Of a DNA stretch of 64,000 bases, positions 14,212 to 63,224 are shown one piece after another. The translations under genes and the position numbers were made by a program. A model generated the notes under the pieces. The model saw only the letters and a list, made by a program, of their open reading frames with translations. It did no database searches and was not told the DNA's origin. Source of the DNA: Escherichia coli. GTDB taxonomy: Bacteria > Pseudomonadota > Gammaproteobacteria > Enterobacterales > Enterobacteriaceae. The stretch is taken from assembly GCF_003334385.1 (NCBI RefSeq), contig NZ_QOWN01000009.1. One strand, written 5' to 3'. The first letter of the stretch is position 1. Each line of letters starts with the position of its first letter.

Positions 14212-14448
14212 TTAACGCAGCGCCCACCACTCGCGCAGACAGGCTTTTCCTTCCGGGCAGCTTTTACAACTGCCAGAGAGGCAGCCGTCAGGTTCTTCCT
14301 GAATCCGCACGGCTTTGCCCATACTTTCCAGTTGTTGCAGCATGGCGTTAATCATTGACTGTGGAGTGTTCAATGTCTGGCTTATCTGGGCCGCTTCCAT
14401 ACGGCCCCGTAACGCCAGCAAATCGCGCACCTGAATAAGTGAAGCCAT
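14212..14448 (-). CDS. feoC: Ferrous iron transport protein FeoC (winged-helix, Cys-rich)
   Basis: 78-aa product starting MASLIQVRD; Cys cluster ([15 protein letters not shown]); start overlaps the feoB stop. Confidence 0.9.
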
Positions 14449-16769
14449 TAATGGCAATCACCGGTGGTGCTGGCTGCGCAGCAACTGCTTACCGACTTGC
14501 GGGTTGCCAGCAGTTCGATATCCACCCGGCTACGCGCGCGGCGCAGCAGACCGATAACCACGATGTTAAACAGGATAACCGCCAGAATGCACACCAGGCT
14601 GTAAGTTGGATGCTGACTGTAGCTGGCGACCTGATAGAACAATGTTGCCAGTGAGTAAGCGATATTCAGCCCCCACAGGATGGAGAAGCCCATCCAGCCA
14701 CGGCTTGATTCACGGGCGATAGCCCCCATCACCGAGATACATGGTACATACAGCAGGACGAAAATCAGGTAGCTGTAAGCTGCTGCTGCGCTACCGAATT
14801 TCTGATCCATCACGCCCATCGCCCCGGTACCCATTTCGCCGTCGCCTTTGCTGGCTTCAATGGGGTTCATCAGTACGCTAAGGCTGAAGGTGTCTTTCAG
14901 GCTCTGCCAGGTTTCATCTATCGCACTGAACAGCTCTTCACCGAGGTTAAATTCTGCCGGATTGAACTCTTCGTCCTGAATATTTTCTGCGGTGTAGAGG
15001 GTGTTGAGCGTACCCACTACCACTTCTTTCGCCATGGCACCTGTAAACAGGCCAACCGTTGCCTGCCAGTTATCTTCATGCACGCCAATTGGCTTGAAGA
15101 CCGGGGTGATCACCCGGCTGACGGACGCCAGCGCCGAGTCGTTGATGTTATCGACGATTTTCCCGCTCAGCGAGAAGCTGTTGAAAGCGCTCAGGAAAAT
15201 GCTGACGATGATGATCACTTTACCAGCACGCAGAACGAAGCCTTTCAGACGCTGCCAGGTCTGGATAATCAGGCTTTTAACGTGTGGTACATGATAGACC
15301 GGCAACTCCATGACAAACGGCGTCGCTTCACCGCGCATGATGGTGTACTTGAGCATCAGGCCAGTCAGCACCGCCATCACAATACCCAGCATATACAGCG
15401 AGAAGACCGCCAGCGCACCGTTCTGCCCGAAGAAGGCAGCCGCGAATACTGCGAAGATAGCCAGACGCGCGCCGCAGGACATAAACGGTGCCATCATGAT
15501 GGTCATCAGACGTTCACGCGGTGCATCAAGCGTACGTGCACCCATTACCGACGGTACGTTACAACCGAAACCGACGATCAGCGGCACAAAGGATTTCCCC
15601 GGCAAGCCCAGCGCCTGCATCAGACGGTCCATCACAAACGCCGCACGCGCCATATACCCGGAGTCCTCAAGGAAGGAGAGGAACAGGTACATCATGCCAA
15701 TCTGCGGCACCAGTGGCAGCACGGTGTTAATGCCGCCACCCAGGCCCTGGGCGAGGAAGATAGTCAGCCAGTCCGGGAAGTGGAGCGTGTAGCCAATCCA
15801 TTGAATACCATGCACAAATAGCGCCACGGAGCCGACGTCAAACAGCGGCTGTAACGCCCCGCCGATGTTGATAGCCAGCAGGAACATCAGGTACATCACA
15901 AAGAGGAAAATCGGCAGACCGAGGAAACGGTTGAGCACGATTTTATCTACCGCAGTGGTGAAACGGCTGGGTTCTGCCGTCAGGGTGTTGCTTACCACAT
16001 CACAGATGGCAGCAATGCACTGGTAACGCGCATCGGCAATGTGCAGCGCCGGATCGTCCATCTCATTACGCAGACGGGCGAGGGCGGCATCCAGATGCTG
16101 CGACGCTTCACCGGCGTAGGCGCGGCTGTAGATATCGCCTTCCAGCATTTGCAGGCCCAGCCAGCGACGTTGTTTCAGCGGGATGTCGGAAGGCATCACT
16201 TTTGCCAGTGAATCTGCTTCGTTGAGCAGCGGCTGTGCGTAATGCACCAGTTCCACATTCTCGTTAGCTTTATAGCGATCAATCGCCAGCTTGAGCGCTT
16301 CAATACCGCGACCACGGGTTGAAACCAGCGGGATCACCGGACAGCCCAGACGCGCCGACAGAGCATCAATTTCAATACGAATATTTTGCTTCTCGGCAAT
16401 GTCGAGCATGTTCAGTGCCACAATGCAGGGAATGCCGAGTTCCAGCAGTTGTAGCGTCAGGTACAGGTTACGCTCAAGGTTAGACGCATCCACCACGTTA
16501 ATCAGCAGGTCGGCGTCGCCACTCAAAATGTAGTGACAGGCGATTTGCTCATCGAGCGAGGTCTGCGATGAGATGGTGGTCAGAGAATAGGTGCCGGGCA
16601 GGTCCACCAGCGTGACCTGATGATCGGTGGTGGAGAATTGCCCTTCTTTACGTTCGACGGTAACGCCAGCCCAGTTACCTACACGCTGACGTGAGCCAGT
16701 GAGCTGGTTAAATAACGTTGTCTTGCCAGAATTTGGATTACCAATTAAGCCAATGGTTAATTTTTTCAT
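14448..16769 (-). CDS. feoB: Ferrous iron transporter FeoB (N-terminal G-protein domain plus membrane domain)
   Basis: 773 aa from [21 protein letters not shown] (G1 motif); long hydrophobic C-terminus. Confidence 0.97.
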
Positions 16770-16785
16770 TGTTGTTATCACCGTA

Positions 16786-17013
16786 TTAACAGGAAACCGC
16801 TTCCACTTCTAATAAGGCCAGATCTTTTTTGCGTAATACCAGGCTCACACGACGGGTTTCGATATGAATGGGGTCGCCGAGTGGAGCGACGCGCACCACA
16901 TTAAAAGAGGAGCCAGGTAACATGCCAAGAGAAAGCAGTTTTTGGCGATATGCCGGGCTGATTTCACGGGAAAAGCCAGTGATTTTCCACGCAGTATCTG
17001 GAGTGTATTGCAT
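16786..17013 (-). CDS. feoA: Ferrous iron transport protein FeoA
   Basis: 75-aa ORF immediately upstream of feoB; recognised as FeoA. Confidence 0.93.
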
Positions 17014-17121
17014 AGGTGCCTACTTGTTTCTCATTAACTGGATAACTACCTCATGGGGCGTTTGACAGCGACATGAGACCAGATGATTTGCCAACAAAGG
17101 AGAGATTAAATAATCAACAAC

Positions 17122-17142
17122 ACAATGATAATGAGAATGGTT
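17122..17142 (-). promoter_or_regulatory. Candidate Fur box in feoABC promoter
   Basis: caatgataatgagaatggtt resembles the Fur consensus GATAATGATAATCATTATC; about 110-130 bp upstream of feoA. Confidence 0.45.
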
Positions 17143-17202
17143 TCTATCAGCAATACTTAAAATGTGTGCGAATGTTGGTTTGAATAATAATCTGACTCAA
17201 TG

Positions 17203-17216
17203 TTGATGTGGCTCAA
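17203..17216 (-). promoter_or_regulatory. Candidate FNR site in feoABC promoter
   Basis: TTGATgtggCTCAA, one mismatch from TTGAT-N4-ATCAA. Confidence 0.4.
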
Positions 17217-17342
17217 GGTTATATCGCAGCGAAAATATAATTCGAATAGTGAATTACCCGGACTGGCTAATGTTTAATTAAGGTTTCAGTTGTTAATGAA
17301 ATGATAAATATTGCCGGAATATATTATGAGTTTGGCTGTGGA

Positions 17343-17369
17343 ATAAAAATGCCGGAGATATTCTCCGGC
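17343..17369 (-). terminator. Intrinsic terminator downstream of tex
   Basis: Hairpin gccggagatattctccggc with minus-strand U-tract; about 100 nt past the tex stop. Confidence 0.55.
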
Positions 17370-17395
17370 ACTTTTATGTCAGGCAAGGCGTTCGT

Positions 17396-17431
17396 TGCCA
17401 GATGCGGCGTGAACGCCTTATCTGCCCTACG
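17396..17431. repeat. REP element downstream of tex
   Basis: tgccagatgcggcgtgaacgccttatctgccctacg, REP-family sequence. Confidence 0.7.
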
Positions 17432-17469
17432 ATTTCGTGCAAATTCGAACCGTAGGCCAGTACGGGCGT

Positions 17470-19791
17470 TTAACGTTTTTTGCCCATTGCCGCCGCCAGC
17501 GCATCCATCATCGCGCTATTACCGGCAGGCTGCGCTTCACGACCGCGTGGTTTGGCTGCCGGGCGGTTGTTTTGCGGGCGTTCATTACCGCCGCCGCGAC
17601 GAGCGTTGGTTTCGCCAGGCTGCTCATCCAGGCGCATAGTCAGGGCGATACGTTTACGCTGAAGATCCACTTCCAGCACTTTCACCTTCACAATGTCGCC
17701 CGCTTTCACCACGGTATGCGGATCTTCCACAAACTTGTTCGACAATGAAGAGATGTGAACCAGGCCGTCCTGATGCACGCCAATATCGACAAACGCGCCA
17801 AAGTTGGTGACGTTGGTCACTGCGCCTTCGAGGATCATACCCGGTTGCAGGTCGTTCATTGTCTCGACGCCATCGGCAAACTGAGCGGTTTTAAATTCCG
17901 GACGCGGATCGCGACCCGGTTTTTCCAGCTCTTTGATGATGTCGGTTACCGTCGGCACACCGAATTTCTCATCAGTAAAGTCAGACGCTTTCAGGTTACG
18001 CAGTTCGCTGCTGTTACCCATCAGATCTTTCAGTGCCTGCTGTGTTGCTGCCAGAATGCGTTCCACCACCGGATAGGCTTCCGGGTGAACGGTAGACGCG
18101 TCCAGCGGGTTATCACCGTGGTTAATGCGCAAGAAGCCCGCGCACTGCTCGAAGGCTTTCGGCCCCAGACGGCTCACTTTTAACAGTTGCTGACGGTTCT
18201 GGAACTGACCGTTCTCATCGCGCCAGGCAACGATGTTTTGCGCCATCATGCGCGTCAGGCCCGCCACGCGGGTTAACAGCGGAACAGAAGCAGTGTTGAG
18301 ATCGACGCCAACGGCGTTTACGCAGTCTTCTACTACTGCGTCCAGTTTGCGGGCCAGTTGCGTCTGGCTGACGTCATGCTGATACTGACCTACGCCGATA
18401 GATTTCGGATCGATTTTCACCAGCTCCGCCAGCGGATCCTGCAAACGGCGGGCGATAGACACCGCGCCACGCAGCGAAACGTCGAGATCCGGGAACTCCT
18501 GTGCAGCCAGCTCGGAAGCCGAGTAAACCGACGCGCCTGCTTCGCTGACGATTACTTTCTGCGCGGTCACTTTCGGGAACTGCTTCTGCACATCGAGATA
18601 GAAACGCTCAGTTTCGCGGGAAGCTGTACCGTTACCGATCGCTACCAGTTCAACGTTATGTTTTTCACACAGCGCAGCAACGGTCATCGCTGCTTTTGCG
18701 GCCTGTCCGGTGTGCGGGTAAATGGTGTCGGTCGCCACCAGTTTGCCAGTGGCATCGACCACCGCCACTTTTACCCCAGTACGCAGACCCGGATCGAGGC
18801 CCATCGTTGCACGCAGTCCGGCAGGGGCCGCCATCAGCAGATCGTGCAGGTTACGGGCAAAGACGTTGATTGCTTCATCTTCCGCACGTTCGCGCACGGT
18901 GCCCATCAGTTCGGTTTCCAGATGCATCAGCACCTTGATGCGCCACGTCCAGCTCACCACGCCTTTGCGCCAGCTATCCGCCGGGGCATTGTTCAGGCGC
19001 AGGCCAAGGTGATCCATGATGATTTGCTCGCAATAGCTCTCTTTGGGCGGCTCATCGAACTGTGGATCGGCATTCAGCGAAAGCTGAAGTACGCCTTCGT
19101 TACGCCCACGGAACATCGCCAGCGCGCGGTGAGAAGGCACCGTGGACAACGGTTCGTGATGATCGAAATAGTCGCGGAATTTCGCCCCTTCCTCTTCTTT
19201 ACCGCTCACCACCGTAGAAACCAAATGCGCGTTCTTCCACAGATAATCACGCACTTTCGCCAGCAGCGCGGCATCTTCGGCAAACCGTTCCATCAGGATA
19301 TAGCGCGCGCCATCCAGCGCGGCTTTGGTATCTGCCACGCCTTTATCGGCATCAACATATTGTGCAGCGGCGACTTCTGGCGTGTGTGACGGATCGCTCC
19401 ACAGCAGGTCAGCCAACGGCTCAAGCCCTGCTTCAATGGCGATTTGCCCGCGGGTGCGGCGTTTAGGTTTGTAGGGCAGGTAGAGGTCTTCGAGTTCGGT
19501 TTTGCTTAGGGTGGCGTTGATGGCCTTCGCCAGATCATCGGTGAGTTTGCCTTGCTCGGAAATGGACTTGAGGATCGCCTGACGTCTCTCTTCCAGCTCG
19601 CGCAGATAGCTCAGACGCGTTTCCAGATTACGCAGCTGCGTGTCATCCAGACCGCCGGTGATTTCCTTACGATAACGTGCGATAAACGGCACGGTATTCC
19701 CTTCGTCAAGCAGGCGAACGGCAGCGTCAACCTGTTCCGGGCGCGCCTGAATTTCACCCGCAATAATGCGGCAGAACGAATCATTCATCAT
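17470..19791 (-). CDS. tex: Transcription accessory protein Tex (YhgF), S1 and YqgF/HhH domains
   Basis: 773-aa ORF; C-terminal S1 domain and Arg/Gly-rich tail. Confidence 0.95.
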
Positions 19792-20364: not shown

Positions 20365-20591
20365 CTCGTTGATTCCCTTTGTCTGTTTGATAATGCGCAC
20401 ATTGGGTATAACGTGATCATATCAACAGAATCAATAATGTTTCGCCGAATAAATTGTATACTTAAGCTGCTGTTTAATATGCTTTGTAACAATTTAGGCT
20501 GAAATTCATACCAGATTTAGCTGGTGACGAACGTGAGCTTTTTTAAGAATACACGCTTACAAATTGTTGCGAACCTTTGGGAGTACAAACA

Positions 20592-60285: not shown

Positions 60286-60612
60286 TTAACCGCGCAGCTG
60301 CACCACGCCGTCTTTCACTCGCGCTTCGTAATGTTTGACGGAAAACTGTTCGTCTTCCATGCACAAGCCGTCGCTTAAGCGAAAACGCTGTTTTTTCAGC
60401 GGGCTGGCGACCCACAGCTCGCCCTGGTGTTCCGCAATCAGTCCGCGTGACAGCACGCTGGACTCGAAGAACGGGTCGATGTTGCTGATCGCAAACACCT
60501 GATCGCTGTGATACGGGTGGAAAATCGCGACCTGCTCGTCACCTAACAGCGCGCAGACGCCGGTTTCAGGCAGGATGTCATCGATTTTGCAGATGTCTTT
60601 CCACTGGCTCAT
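60286..60612 (-). CDS. nirD: Nitrite reductase [NAD(P)H] small subunit
   Basis: 108-aa Rieske-like ORF; 4-nt overlap with the nirB stop. Confidence 0.95.
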   Translation of the reverse strand: MSQWKDICKIDDILPETGVCALLGDEQVAIFHPYHSDQVFAISNIDPFFESSVLSRGLIAEHQGELWVASPLKKQRFRLSDGLCMEDEQFSVKHYEARVKDGVVQLRG

Positions 60613-63152
60613 GCGTTGTCCTCCACCAGAGTTACTGGGATACGTTCATACGGCGTTGCCGGACGGTGCTGTTCGCGCTCTGGCACCATCTGCACGTTCG
60701 GGTCACGCTTGTCGCTGTTGATGAAGTGTTTGAAGCGAGTCTGCGCAGACGGCGTATTGACCGTTTCAGTCCACTCACACAGTACCGCTTCACGCAGGCG
60801 CGCCATCTCTTCTTCCAGATGTGCGTTCAGCCCCAGTTTGTCGTCAATGATCACTGCTTTCAGGTAATCGATGCCGCCTTCGAGGTTTTCTAACCACGGT
60901 GCGGTACGCGTCAGTTTGTCGGCAGTACGGATGTAGAACATCATGAAGCGGTCGAGATATTTGATCAGCGTTTCGCGATCGATATCCGCCGCCAGCAGAT
61001 CCGCATGACGCGGTTTCATGCCGCCGTTACCGCAAACATACAGGTTCCAGCCTTTTTCAGTGGCGATAATACCCACGTCTTTACCCTGAGCTTCTGAACA
61101 TTCACGGGTACAGCCGGAGACACCGAACTTCATTTTGTGCGGCGTACGGATGCCTTTGTAGCGGTTTTCCAGTTCCACGCCGAGGCCGACGCTGTCGCCA
61201 ACGCCGTAGCGGCACCAGGTGCTACCCACGCAGGTTTTCGCCATACGCAGTGCTTTCGCATAGGCATGACCGGTTTCGAAGCCGGCTTCAATCAGCTGAC
61301 GCCAGATCTCCGGCAGATCGTCTTTCTGTGCGCCAAACATCGCCAGACGCTGGGAGCCAGTGATCTTGGTGTAGAGATTAAATTCACGCGCGATACGACC
61401 TACCGCCATCAGCCCTTCCGGGGTGATTTCACCGCCCGGAGAACGCGGGATCACCGAGTAGGTGCCGTCTTTCTGGATGTTAGCGAGGAAGTTGTCGTTA
61501 GAATCCTGCAGCGGAGTATGTTCCGGCTTCAGAATGTATTCGTTCCAGCAGGAGGCCAGCAGCGAACCGACGGTTGGTTTACAAACTTCACAACCGTAGC
61601 CTTTGCCGTGTTTCGCCAGCAGTTCTTCGAAGGTTTTAATGCCTTCAACGCGGATCAAATGGAACAGTTCCTGACGCGAATAAGCAAAGTGTTCGCACAG
61701 GTTGTTGTTAACTTCGATGCCCTGTTTCGCCAGTTCCGCGTTCAGTACCTGAGTGACCAGCGGGATACAGCCACCGCAGCCAGTACCCGCTTTGGTTTCA
61801 GCTTTCAGCGCCGCAACTGTGTGGCAGCCTTTGTTGATGGCAGCAATCAGATCACCTTTGGTGACGTCGAAGCAGGAGCAGATTTGCGCGCTGTCCGGCA
61901 GTTTATCAACACCGATAGACGGCTTGCCGCTACCCGAGTGTGCTGGCAGGATCAGGGAATCCGGGTTTTCCGGCAGTTCGATAGCGTTCAGCACCAGTTG
62001 CAGCAGGTTACCGTAGTCGCTGGTATCGCCCACCAGTACCGCACCGAGCAGGGTTTTGTTGTCTTCGCTGACAATCAGGCGTTTGTAGATCTCTTTACTT
62101 TCGTCGAGGTAAACGTAGCTACGTGCGCCAGGCGTGCGACCGTGCGCATCACCAATACCGCCTACGTCTACGCCCAGCAGTTTCAGCTTGGCGCTAAGGT
62201 CAGCACCTTCAAAGGCGTTTTCGCTACCGAGAATATGGTCAACGGCGACCTGCGCCATTTTGTAGCCAGGTGCTACCAGACCAAATACACGGTTGTTCCA
62301 GCTTGCGCATTCACCGATGGCGTAGATATCCGGATCGGAAGTCTGGCAGGAATCATTAATGACAATACCCCCACGCGGAGCAACGTCCAGACCACACTGG
62401 GTTGCCAGCTTATCGCGCGGACGGATACCGGTAGAGAAGACGATAAAGTCGACTTCCAGTTCGCTGCCGTCGGCAAAACGCATGGTTTTACGCGCTTCAA
62501 CACCTTCCTGCACAATCTCAAGGGTGTTTTTGCTGGTGTGAACGCGCACGCCCATACTTTCGATTTTGCGACGCAGCTGCTCGCCGCCCATCTGATCAAG
62601 CTGTTCTGCCATCAGCATAGGGGCAAATTCGATAACGTGGGTTTCAATACCTAAGTTTTTCAGCGCGCCTGCGGCTTCCAGACCTAACAGGCCGCCACCA
62701 ACAACGGCACCGCGTTTGCTGCGACGGGCGCAGGATTCAATGGCGTTGAGGTCTTCAATAGTGCGATAGACAAAGCAGTCCTGAGTATCAGAACCTTTGA
62801 TTGGCGGGATCCACGGGTAGGAACCGGTTGCCATGATCAGCTTGTCATAAAAAACGGTACGTCCGGCGCTGGAGTGAATCACCTTCTCCTGACGGTTGAT
62901 GGTGATAGCGCGTTCGCCGACCAGAACTTTGATGCCGTGTTTCTCGTAGAAGCCTTCGCGCACCAGCGACAGCTCTTCGGCGGTGTGGTGAGAGAAGTAA
63001 GACGAGAGGTGTACGCGGTCATAAGCGATGCGCGGTTCTTCACAGAAAACGGTAATATCAAAGTTGGCCGCATCAGATTTATCAAGAAGATCTTCGATAA
63101 AGCGATGGCCGACCATACCGTTACCGATAATTGCGAGTCTGACTTTGCTCAT
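60609..63152 (-). CDS. nirB: Nitrite reductase [NAD(P)H] large subunit (FAD/NAD, siroheme/Fe-S)
   Basis: 847 aa; N-terminal dinucleotide fold (IGNGMVG) and C-terminal nitrite/sulfite reductase Cys cluster. Confidence 0.97.
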   Translation of the reverse strand: MSKVRLAIIGNGMVGHRFIEDLLDKSDAANFDITVFCEEPRIAYDRVHLSSYFSHHTAEELSLVREGFYEKHGIKVLVGERAITINRQEKVIHSSAGRTVFYDKLIMATGSYPWIPPIKGSDTQDCFVYRTIEDLNAIESCARRSKRGAVVGGGLLGLEAAGALKNLGIETHVIEFAPMLMAEQLDQMGGEQLRRKIESMGVRVHTSKNTLEIVQEGVEARKTMRFADGSELEVDFIVFSTGIRPRDKLATQCGLDVAPRGGIVINDSCQTSDPDIYAIGECASWNNRVFGLVAPGYKMAQVAVDHILGSENAFEGADLSAKLKLLGVDVGGIGDAHGRTPGARSYVYLDESKEIYKRLIVSEDNKTLLGAVLVGDTSDYGNLLQLVLNAIELPENPDSLILPAHSGSGKPSIGVDKLPDSAQICSCFDVTKGDLIAAINKGCHTVAALKAETKAGTGCGGCIPLVTQVLNAELAKQGIEVNNNLCEHFAYSRQELFHLIRVEGIKTFEELLAKHGKGYGCEVCKPTVGSLLASCWNEYILKPEHTPLQDSNDNFLANIQKDGTYSVIPRSPGGEITPEGLMAVGRIAREFNLYTKITGSQRLAMFGAQKDDLPEIWRQLIEAGFETGHAYAKALRMAKTCVGSTWCRYGVGDSVGLGVELENRYKGIRTPHKMKFGVSGCTRECSEAQGKDVGIIATEKGWNLYVCGNGGMKPRHADLLAADIDRETLIKYLDRFMMFYIRTADKLTRTAPWLENLEGGIDYLKAVIIDDKLGLNAHLEEEMARLREAVLCEWTETVNTPSAQTRFKHFINSDKRDPNVQMVPEREQHRPATPYERIPVTLVEDNA

Positions 63153-63210: not shown

Positions 63211-63224
63211 TTGATGTAAATCAA
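63211..63224 (-). promoter_or_regulatory. FNR site of the nirB promoter
   Basis: Perfect TTGATgtaaATCAA about 60-70 bp upstream of the nirB start, consistent with a class II FNR promoter and a TAAGGT-like -10 near 63183..63188. Confidence 0.8.

Follow-up and report, generated by a model that had tools for sequence, protein, structure and literature searches.

The feoABC control region of Escherichia coli: Fur on the core promoter and probable activation by FNR from a distal site

Positions 17014-17300 of the stretch of Escherichia coli DNA analyzed here (64,000 nucleotides, hereafter the window) are the known sigma-70 promoter region of feoABC, the ferrous-iron transporter operon of E. coli K-12. 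With a probability that we put at about 0.8, this region combines Fur bound to a core promoter that initiates at window position 17119 (w17119; the prefix w denotes window positions) with FNR activating the same promoter distally, from a site centered at about -90.5. The initial annotation had recognized a feoABC control region with iron- and anaerobiosis-responsive sites, which identity to the K-12 locus and ChIP data bear out, and had offered a choice between a non-functional FNR motif and a Fur roadblock within the leader. Neither is needed: Fur lies over the core promoter and FNR is distal.

Control of feoABC by Fur, FNR and ArcA is already established, and the sites described below coincide with published ChIP data. 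The promoter, feoAp, has reportedly been studied by Kammler et al. in 1993, by Seo et al. in 2014 and by Beauchene et al. in 2015 and 2017. It is also covered in two further studies (Myers et al., 2013; Park et al., 2013). The novel observation is that the spacing between the FNR site and the promoter is fixed in Enterobacteriaceae and the length of the leader is not.

The feo locus and the coordinate frame

The genes and the upstream boundary of the control region are as follows.

16786..17013, minus strand: feoA coding sequence, 75 aa (ORF list and RefSeq annotation of the identical MG1655 locus)
16769..14448, minus strand: feoB (ORF list and MG1655 RefSeq annotation)
14448..14212, minus strand: feoC (ORF list and MG1655 RefSeq annotation)
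17350..17370, unstranded: GC-rich hairpin flanked on either side by T-runs, probable terminator of yhgF (tex), bounding the feo control region upstream (terminator scan)

Given that the feo genes are encoded on the minus strand, the control region is read on that strand, and upstream corresponds to higher coordinates. The interval 17014..17469 (456 bp) matches E. coli K-12 MG1655 at 100% identity; all of the 5,426 complete E. coli genomes searched contain it. The gene order in the MG1655 record is ompR, greB, yhgF (tex), feoA, feoB, feoC, and in the ORF list yhgF, also on the minus strand, ends at 17470. Compared with feoAp of E. coli K-12 as described in EcoCyc and RegulonDB, the window shows no difference: the DNA is identical, as are the FNR 14-mer, the ArcA site and the Fur footprint.

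Published coordinates were transferred to the window with the relationship g(U00096.2) = 3555198 - w, which was verified on two published sites, namely the ArcA site at 3537888-3537908 (w17310..17290) and the FNR site at 3537982 (w17216). As an independent check, a Fur ChIP-exo peak at U00096.2 3534739-3534772, assigned in the source to the ompR intergenic region, falls at window positions 20426..20459, within the intergenic region between greB and ompR. This segment contains GAATCAATAATGTTT, which is loosely Fur-like, and Fur binding next to ompR may provide a regulatory link, OmpR being a listed activator of feoABC.

The hairpin that bounds the control region consists of TGCCGGAGA-TAT-TCTCCGGCA with T-runs on both strands and, read on the minus strand, presents the stem followed by TTTTTATT; the terminator scan called the plus strand only. 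It is probably a bidirectional terminator that closes yhgF. Between the yhgF stop codon and this terminator, at about 17385..17450, there is a REP-type palindromic element (containing CAGATAAGGCGTTCACGCCGCATCTGGCAA) that scores 32 bits with the Rfam family naRNA4, short of the gathering score of 59.5. The plus strand of 17234..17383, antisense to the feo upstream region, weakly matches two Salmonella sRNAs in Rfam, STnc390 and STnc430, at 23 and 22 bits, respectively, below their gathering scores of 50 and 47; these matches probably reflect similarity to the terminator or to REP elements.

Transcription start, core promoter and leader

The start of feoA transcription corresponds to U00096.2 3538079, that is, w17119, as follows from the placement of the ArcA site 3537888-3537908 at -191..-171 (Park et al., 2013). 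This position is second-hand, taken from Tables S4 and S6 of that study, which were built on start sites from EcoCyc or from Kim 2012, and the Kim 2012 supplements contain no entry for feoA or for coordinates 35379xx/35380xx. A single known start site is given for feoA in Table S9 of Myers et al. (2013), and the Fur ChIP-exo footprint and the conservation data described below converge on w17119. The elements defined relative to this start are the following.

17130..17125, minus strand: -10 element TATCAT (5/6), at -11..-6 (sequence and conservation)
17153..17148, minus strand: -35 element TTGCTG (3/6 in E. coli) with a 17-bp spacer, at -34..-29 (sequence and conservation)
17119..17014, minus strand: feoA 5' leader of about 106 nt, from the mapped start to the base before the ATG

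The pair TTGCTG-17-TATCAT ranks first among sigma-70-like pairs on the feoA strand of the intergenic region when scored with a rough sigma-70 position weight matrix (PWM), with a score of 8.5 that lies within the range of shuffled sequences (median best score 7.5). A score at the level of shuffles is in keeping with a weak promoter that depends on activators. The feoA promoter was missed by the built-in promoter scan because the E. coli -35 element matches the consensus at only 3 of 6 positions; in most relatives, this element is TTGATG or TTGAAG. Promoter prediction by itself is thus insufficient to settle where feoA transcription starts.

We also considered a cis-regulatory RNA in the leader (a riboswitch, an attenuator or a target of a small RNA) and rejected this candidate: the leader matches no Rfam family, its predicted fold is no more stable than those of shuffled sequences (z = 0.39), and about 70 nt of it are absent in Enterobacter, Leclercia and Lelliottia, where the leader is about 34 nt long.

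The Fur operator covers the core promoter

Fur binding was located with a published ChIP-exo footprint and with sequence motifs.

17151..17118, unstranded: Fur operator (ChIP-exo footprint), at -32..+2, enclosing both the box at 17122..17142 and the hexamer array at 17121..17138
17142..17122: Fur box of the initial annotation, at -23..-3

The Fur-like box reported at 17122..17142 stands, as there is a hexamer array at this position and a footprint that encloses it. The array consists of three tandem GATAAT-type hexamers, CACAAT GATAAT GAGAAT, at 17121..17138, with 15 matches in 18 positions; the 64 kb window contains only this match to the three-hexamer pattern with at most three mismatches, where 0.05 would be expected by chance. 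A window scan for the classical 19-mer Fur consensus, also with up to three mismatches, returned no match, and the best registers obtained by hand alignment reach about 12-13 of 19 positions, so that a hexamer array fits the box better than the 19-bp consensus does.

The footprint, determined in iron-replete cells, spans U00096.2 3538047-3538080 (PMC10164565, supplement file 3, peak P104) and overlaps both TTGCTG and TATCAT of the mapped start, as expected for promoter occlusion. A roadblock operator would lie downstream of the start, whereas the Fur operator spans -32..+2 of the only known one. In a feoA-lacZ fusion, repression by Fur was seen anaerobically; that repression becomes visible only under anaerobic conditions, with the activators present, matches epistasis of Fur when iron is sufficient.

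The FNR site and its position

17216..17203, unstranded: FNR site TTGAGCCACATCAA, centered at w17209.5, about -90.5 from the mapped start; the plus strand reads TTGATGTGGCTCAA

The initial annotation was right about the existence of an FNR site at 17203..17216 and wrong in describing it as half-degenerate: TTGAGCCACATCAA matches 9 of the 10 consensus positions of TTGAT-N4-ATCAA, and exactly this 14-mer was reported as a PWM site at 3537982, with a score of 14.6, beneath an FNR ChIP-seq peak (Myers et al., 2013). Matches to the FNR consensus with at most one mismatch number six in the 64 kb window, several of them within genes, compared to 2.0 expected; the motif by itself is therefore statistically unremarkable, and its significance must rest on other evidence. 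The real support for both the FNR and the Fur sites of feoA comes from the published in vivo data and from conservation, each element being retained in at least 78 of 81 Enterobacteriaceae loci. A second, weak FNR-like motif, TTGAGTCAGATTAT, is located 16 bp downstream of the first and is conserved in Escherichia and Citrobacter only.

The same frequency of near-consensus matches is what could be adduced for the view that the feoA motif is a chance match without function. This view has to contend with the ChIP-seq peak over the PWM site, with the strong conservation of the half-sites TTG and TCAA, and with the fixed distance to the -10 element in 78 of the 81 loci compared below, and we give it hardly any credence.

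At most FNR-activated promoters, FNR binds at -41.5 (class II), and natural activation from beyond -61.5 is rare. The feoA site occupies such a distal, class I-like position. Its center at w17209.5 is at -90.5 from w17119, far outside the class II position of -41.5 (+/-4), so the conclusion that the two sites are incompatible with a conventional class II promoter holds. The spacing is unconventional, as had been noted, for a different reason, however, than the one proposed: FNR is at -90.5. With the Fur box over the core promoter and the FNR motif at neither -41.5 nor -61.5 of the mapped start, the outcome is the very one that the initial annotation had named as contradicting its reading.

The roadblock reading deserves to be spelled out. 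If FNR acted at -41.5, transcription would start near w17168 and the Fur box would fall at about +27..+47, where Fur would block the elongating polymerase within the leader. The arithmetic, given correctly in the initial annotation, makes this geometry possible, and class II promoters are the majority of FNR-activated promoters. This reading requires, however, a -10 element about 28-32 bp downstream of the FNR center, where E. coli offers at best CAACAT (3/6) and a hexamer with A2/T6 and at least 4 of 6 matches occurs in only 4 of 79 loci; furthermore, the sole known start is mapped to w17119 and the Fur footprint coincides with the conserved -35/-10 pair. We consider the roadblock very improbable. 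A class II promoter at feoA was rejected as a candidate, with no usable -10 element in the required window and a geometry of -90.5 from the start. Another candidate -10 element, TATTAT (17189..17184), was also rejected: its distance to the FNR center is 23 bp, no -35 element is present at 16-18 bp, and its pattern of conservation is unlike that of a -10 element.

The window provides a control for class II geometry in the nirB promoter, where a perfect FNR site (63224..63211; TTGATTTACATCAA on the minus strand) is located 28.5 bp from the -10 element TAAGGT, upstream of an ORF of 847 aa (63152..60609, beginning with MSKVRLAIIG). FNR acts there at -41.5 (Myers et al., 2013, Table 1). Both promoters combine an FNR site with an anaerobically induced operon; nirB has a perfect site in the class II position, whereas at feoA the site is 79.5 bp from the -10 element and the core is covered by the Fur operator, a difference that also counts against the roadblock. 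The published coordinate of the nirB FNR site (3491961; Myers et al., 2013) and the coordinate obtained with the local map (3491974) are 13 bp apart.

Conservation in Enterobacteriaceae

For comparison, 80 feoA loci of Enterobacteriaceae were fetched, one per species, and counts are given over 81 loci. An FNR-like site is present at a near-fixed distance in 78 of these. Most loci (56) have 79.5 bp between the FNR center and the first base of the -10 element, another 22 have 78.5 bp, and a single locus (L060) has 69.5 bp, the latter being exactly 10 bp, or one helical turn, shorter, with the A/T block described below remaining adjacent to the FNR site despite the loss. All three distances keep the upstream site on one face of the helix, as is characteristic of class I promoters. 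Over the approximately 50 bp that separate the FNR site from the -35 element, the sequence diverges considerably and the spacing is retained.

Information content is near maximal from the -35 to the -10 element; TATCAT is the -10 element in 68 of the 81 loci, and all loci scored have 4/6 or 5/6. The block TTGATGATAAAAACCATTCTCATTATCAT hardly varies, and ATTCTCATTA is identical throughout an alignment of 24 genera. TTG and TCAA of the FNR site rank with the best-conserved columns of the region.

The leader behaves differently, with lengths from 32 to 234 nt across the 81 loci. Given that the distance between FNR and the -10 element is fixed while the leader varies, selection has held the FNR site in register with the promoter that carries the Fur box, not with the start codon or the leader. 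Leaders of 32-37 nt were observed in 13 loci from Enterobacter, Leclercia, Lelliottia, Silvania and Huaxiibacter (L039, L041, L047, L055, L062, L068, L071, L072, L075-L078 and L080), leaders of about 100 nt in Escherichia, Citrobacter, Salmonella and Klebsiella, and a leader of 234 nt in Klebsiella indica (L070); in the loci with short leaders and in L070, the module comprising FNR site, Fur operator and promoter is unaltered.

In Cedecea davisae and C. neteri (L069 and L079), the TATCAT promoter is conserved and has no FNR-like site at the usual spacing. In these two loci, a perfect FNR consensus (TTGATCTAAATCAA and TTGATTTAAATCAA, respectively) is located 369-380 bp upstream of the feoA ATG and may belong to a different gene.

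Elements between and beyond the FNR site and the promoter

17188..17194, minus strand: conserved A/T block CAGATTA (family consensus CAAATTA), at about -75..-69, 18-19 bp downstream of the FNR center
17163..17176, minus strand: conserved box AACATTCGCACACA (family consensus ACATtCcgtCACA), at about -57..-44 (conservation)
17290..17310, plus strand: ArcA-P site TTGTTAATGAAATGATAAATA, at -191..-171 (Park et al., 2013, Tables S3, S4 and S6)

The A/T block could serve as a docking site for the alpha-CTD of RNA polymerase. It could also supply the -10 element of an additional weak promoter, TTGAGC-18 bp-GATTAT, that overlies the FNR site and would start near w17180, with transcripts crossing the Fur operator. 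Such a two-promoter arrangement has been proposed for Yersinia pestis, where feoABC, as in E. coli, has a Fur site over the -35 and -10 elements of a downstream promoter (P2) and a putative Fnr site further upstream, over which an upstream promoter (P1) was inferred. The pair TTGAGC-18-GATTAT is the second-ranked sigma-70-like pair of the intergenic region, and the A/T block that provides its -10 element is conserved. Its PWM score is nevertheless below that of the main promoter and well inside the shuffles, and the conservation of the block is strongest at the two central Ts and not at hexamer positions 2 and 6, unlike what is seen in a -10 element; FNR would also sit on the -35 element of this promoter (center at about -29.5), from where activation is impossible, and one start is listed for feoA. 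The two species differ as well: in Y. pestis, mutations in fnr and arcA were without effect and P1 was proposed, whereas in E. coli there is one known start and FNR is bound in vivo. Two promoters at E. coli feoA thus appear improbable.

The box AACATTCGCACACA is a candidate site for an OmpR-family protein (RstA or OmpR). Its family consensus ACATtCcgtCACA presumably resembles the RstA box that the feoA promoter of Salmonella enterica is said to carry, according to work by Jeon et al. in 2008. In the Salmonella loci L007 and L015, TACATTCCGTCACA occupies the position of AACATTCGCACACA of E. coli, with the same FNR and Fur blocks. An EcoCyc-derived listing gives p-OmpR as an activator of feoABC and includes NagC among the regulators. 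Further upstream, ArcA-P activates feoABC (Park et al., 2013). The motif ATATTTATCA recurs in Escherichia and Citrobacter loci, about as far from feoA as the ArcA-P site.

These elements raise the question of how FNR would act from its distal position. As a background, the lac promoter is a class I promoter with its activator at -61.5, and alpha-CTD docks about 19 bp from the center of CRP sites. Synthetic promoters activated by CRP or FNR are said to be active with the activator at -61.5, -71.5, -82.5 and -92.5, in work of Gaston in 1990 and Wing in 1995, and -90.5 is accordingly 1-2 bp away from the reported optimal class I phase of such synthetic promoters, -92.5. Like class I promoters of the CRP/FNR type, feoAp has its activator well upstream of the -35 element, changes in spacing of approximately a helical turn, and an A/T block about 19 bp to the promoter-proximal side; it departs from the class I reference in this slight offset. 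From the near-fixed spacing with its 10-bp exception and from the A/T block, we infer that FNR may contact alpha-CTD at feoA in the class I manner.

With the architecture itself unchanged, FNR might instead work together with ArcA-P and/or an OmpR-family protein, or counter a nucleoid protein, and not as a simple alpha-CTD class I activator. The activating ArcA-P site at -191..-171, the conserved OmpR-family-like box at -57..-44, the presence of p-OmpR and NagC among the listed regulators and the slight offset from the ideal class I phase would all be compatible with such cooperation. The FNR-to-promoter spacing, however, is kept within 1 bp, with the sole larger change being exactly 10 bp, as expected of direct contact, and the A/T block is at the distance at which alpha-CTD docks beside activators of the CRP family. 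Cooperation of this kind is accordingly unlikely, albeit a possibility to be taken seriously.

A model of feoABC control

Taken together, the preferred reading, with Fur on the core promoter and FNR acting distally, can be formulated as follows. Transcription would proceed from the weak promoter TTGCTG-17 bp-TATCAT, about 106 nt upstream of the feoA ATG. Fe2+-loaded Fur, bound to the hexamer array over the -35 element, the spacer, the -10 element and the start, would exclude RNA polymerase by promoter occlusion. Under anaerobic conditions, FNR at its near-consensus site about 90.5 bp upstream of the start would activate the same promoter in a class I-type manner, with ArcA-P acting further upstream (-191..-171) and the OmpR-family-like box placed between FNR and the -35 element. 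Its place on the core promoter would make Fur epistatic to both FNR and ArcA when cells are iron-replete.

In iron-replete cultures, FNR was bound at feoABC and no FNR-dependent change in expression was seen (Myers et al., 2013), and feoABC is described in the literature as an FNR-activated operon masked by Fur in such cultures. Direct activation in vivo from the feoA FNR site rests on older genetics.

A more specific version of this model, which we offer tentatively and at somewhat less than even odds, is that feoAp is a natural, evolutionarily fixed distal class I FNR promoter, with FNR at -90.5 or -91.5 (-81.5 in one lineage) and alpha-CTD on CAAATTA, acting across an OmpR-family site. If this is true, oxygen, envelope/acid and iron signals would be integrated on one weak promoter, with the core gated by Fur.

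Implications

The main use of this analysis is negative, in that neither a Fur roadblock nor a dead FNR site has to be invoked at feoA. The promoter is among the few natural ones with FNR far upstream, at about -90, in a geometry that is conserved in the family. It is a convenient natural model both for distal activation by FNR and for a core-promoter repressor that overrides upstream activators.
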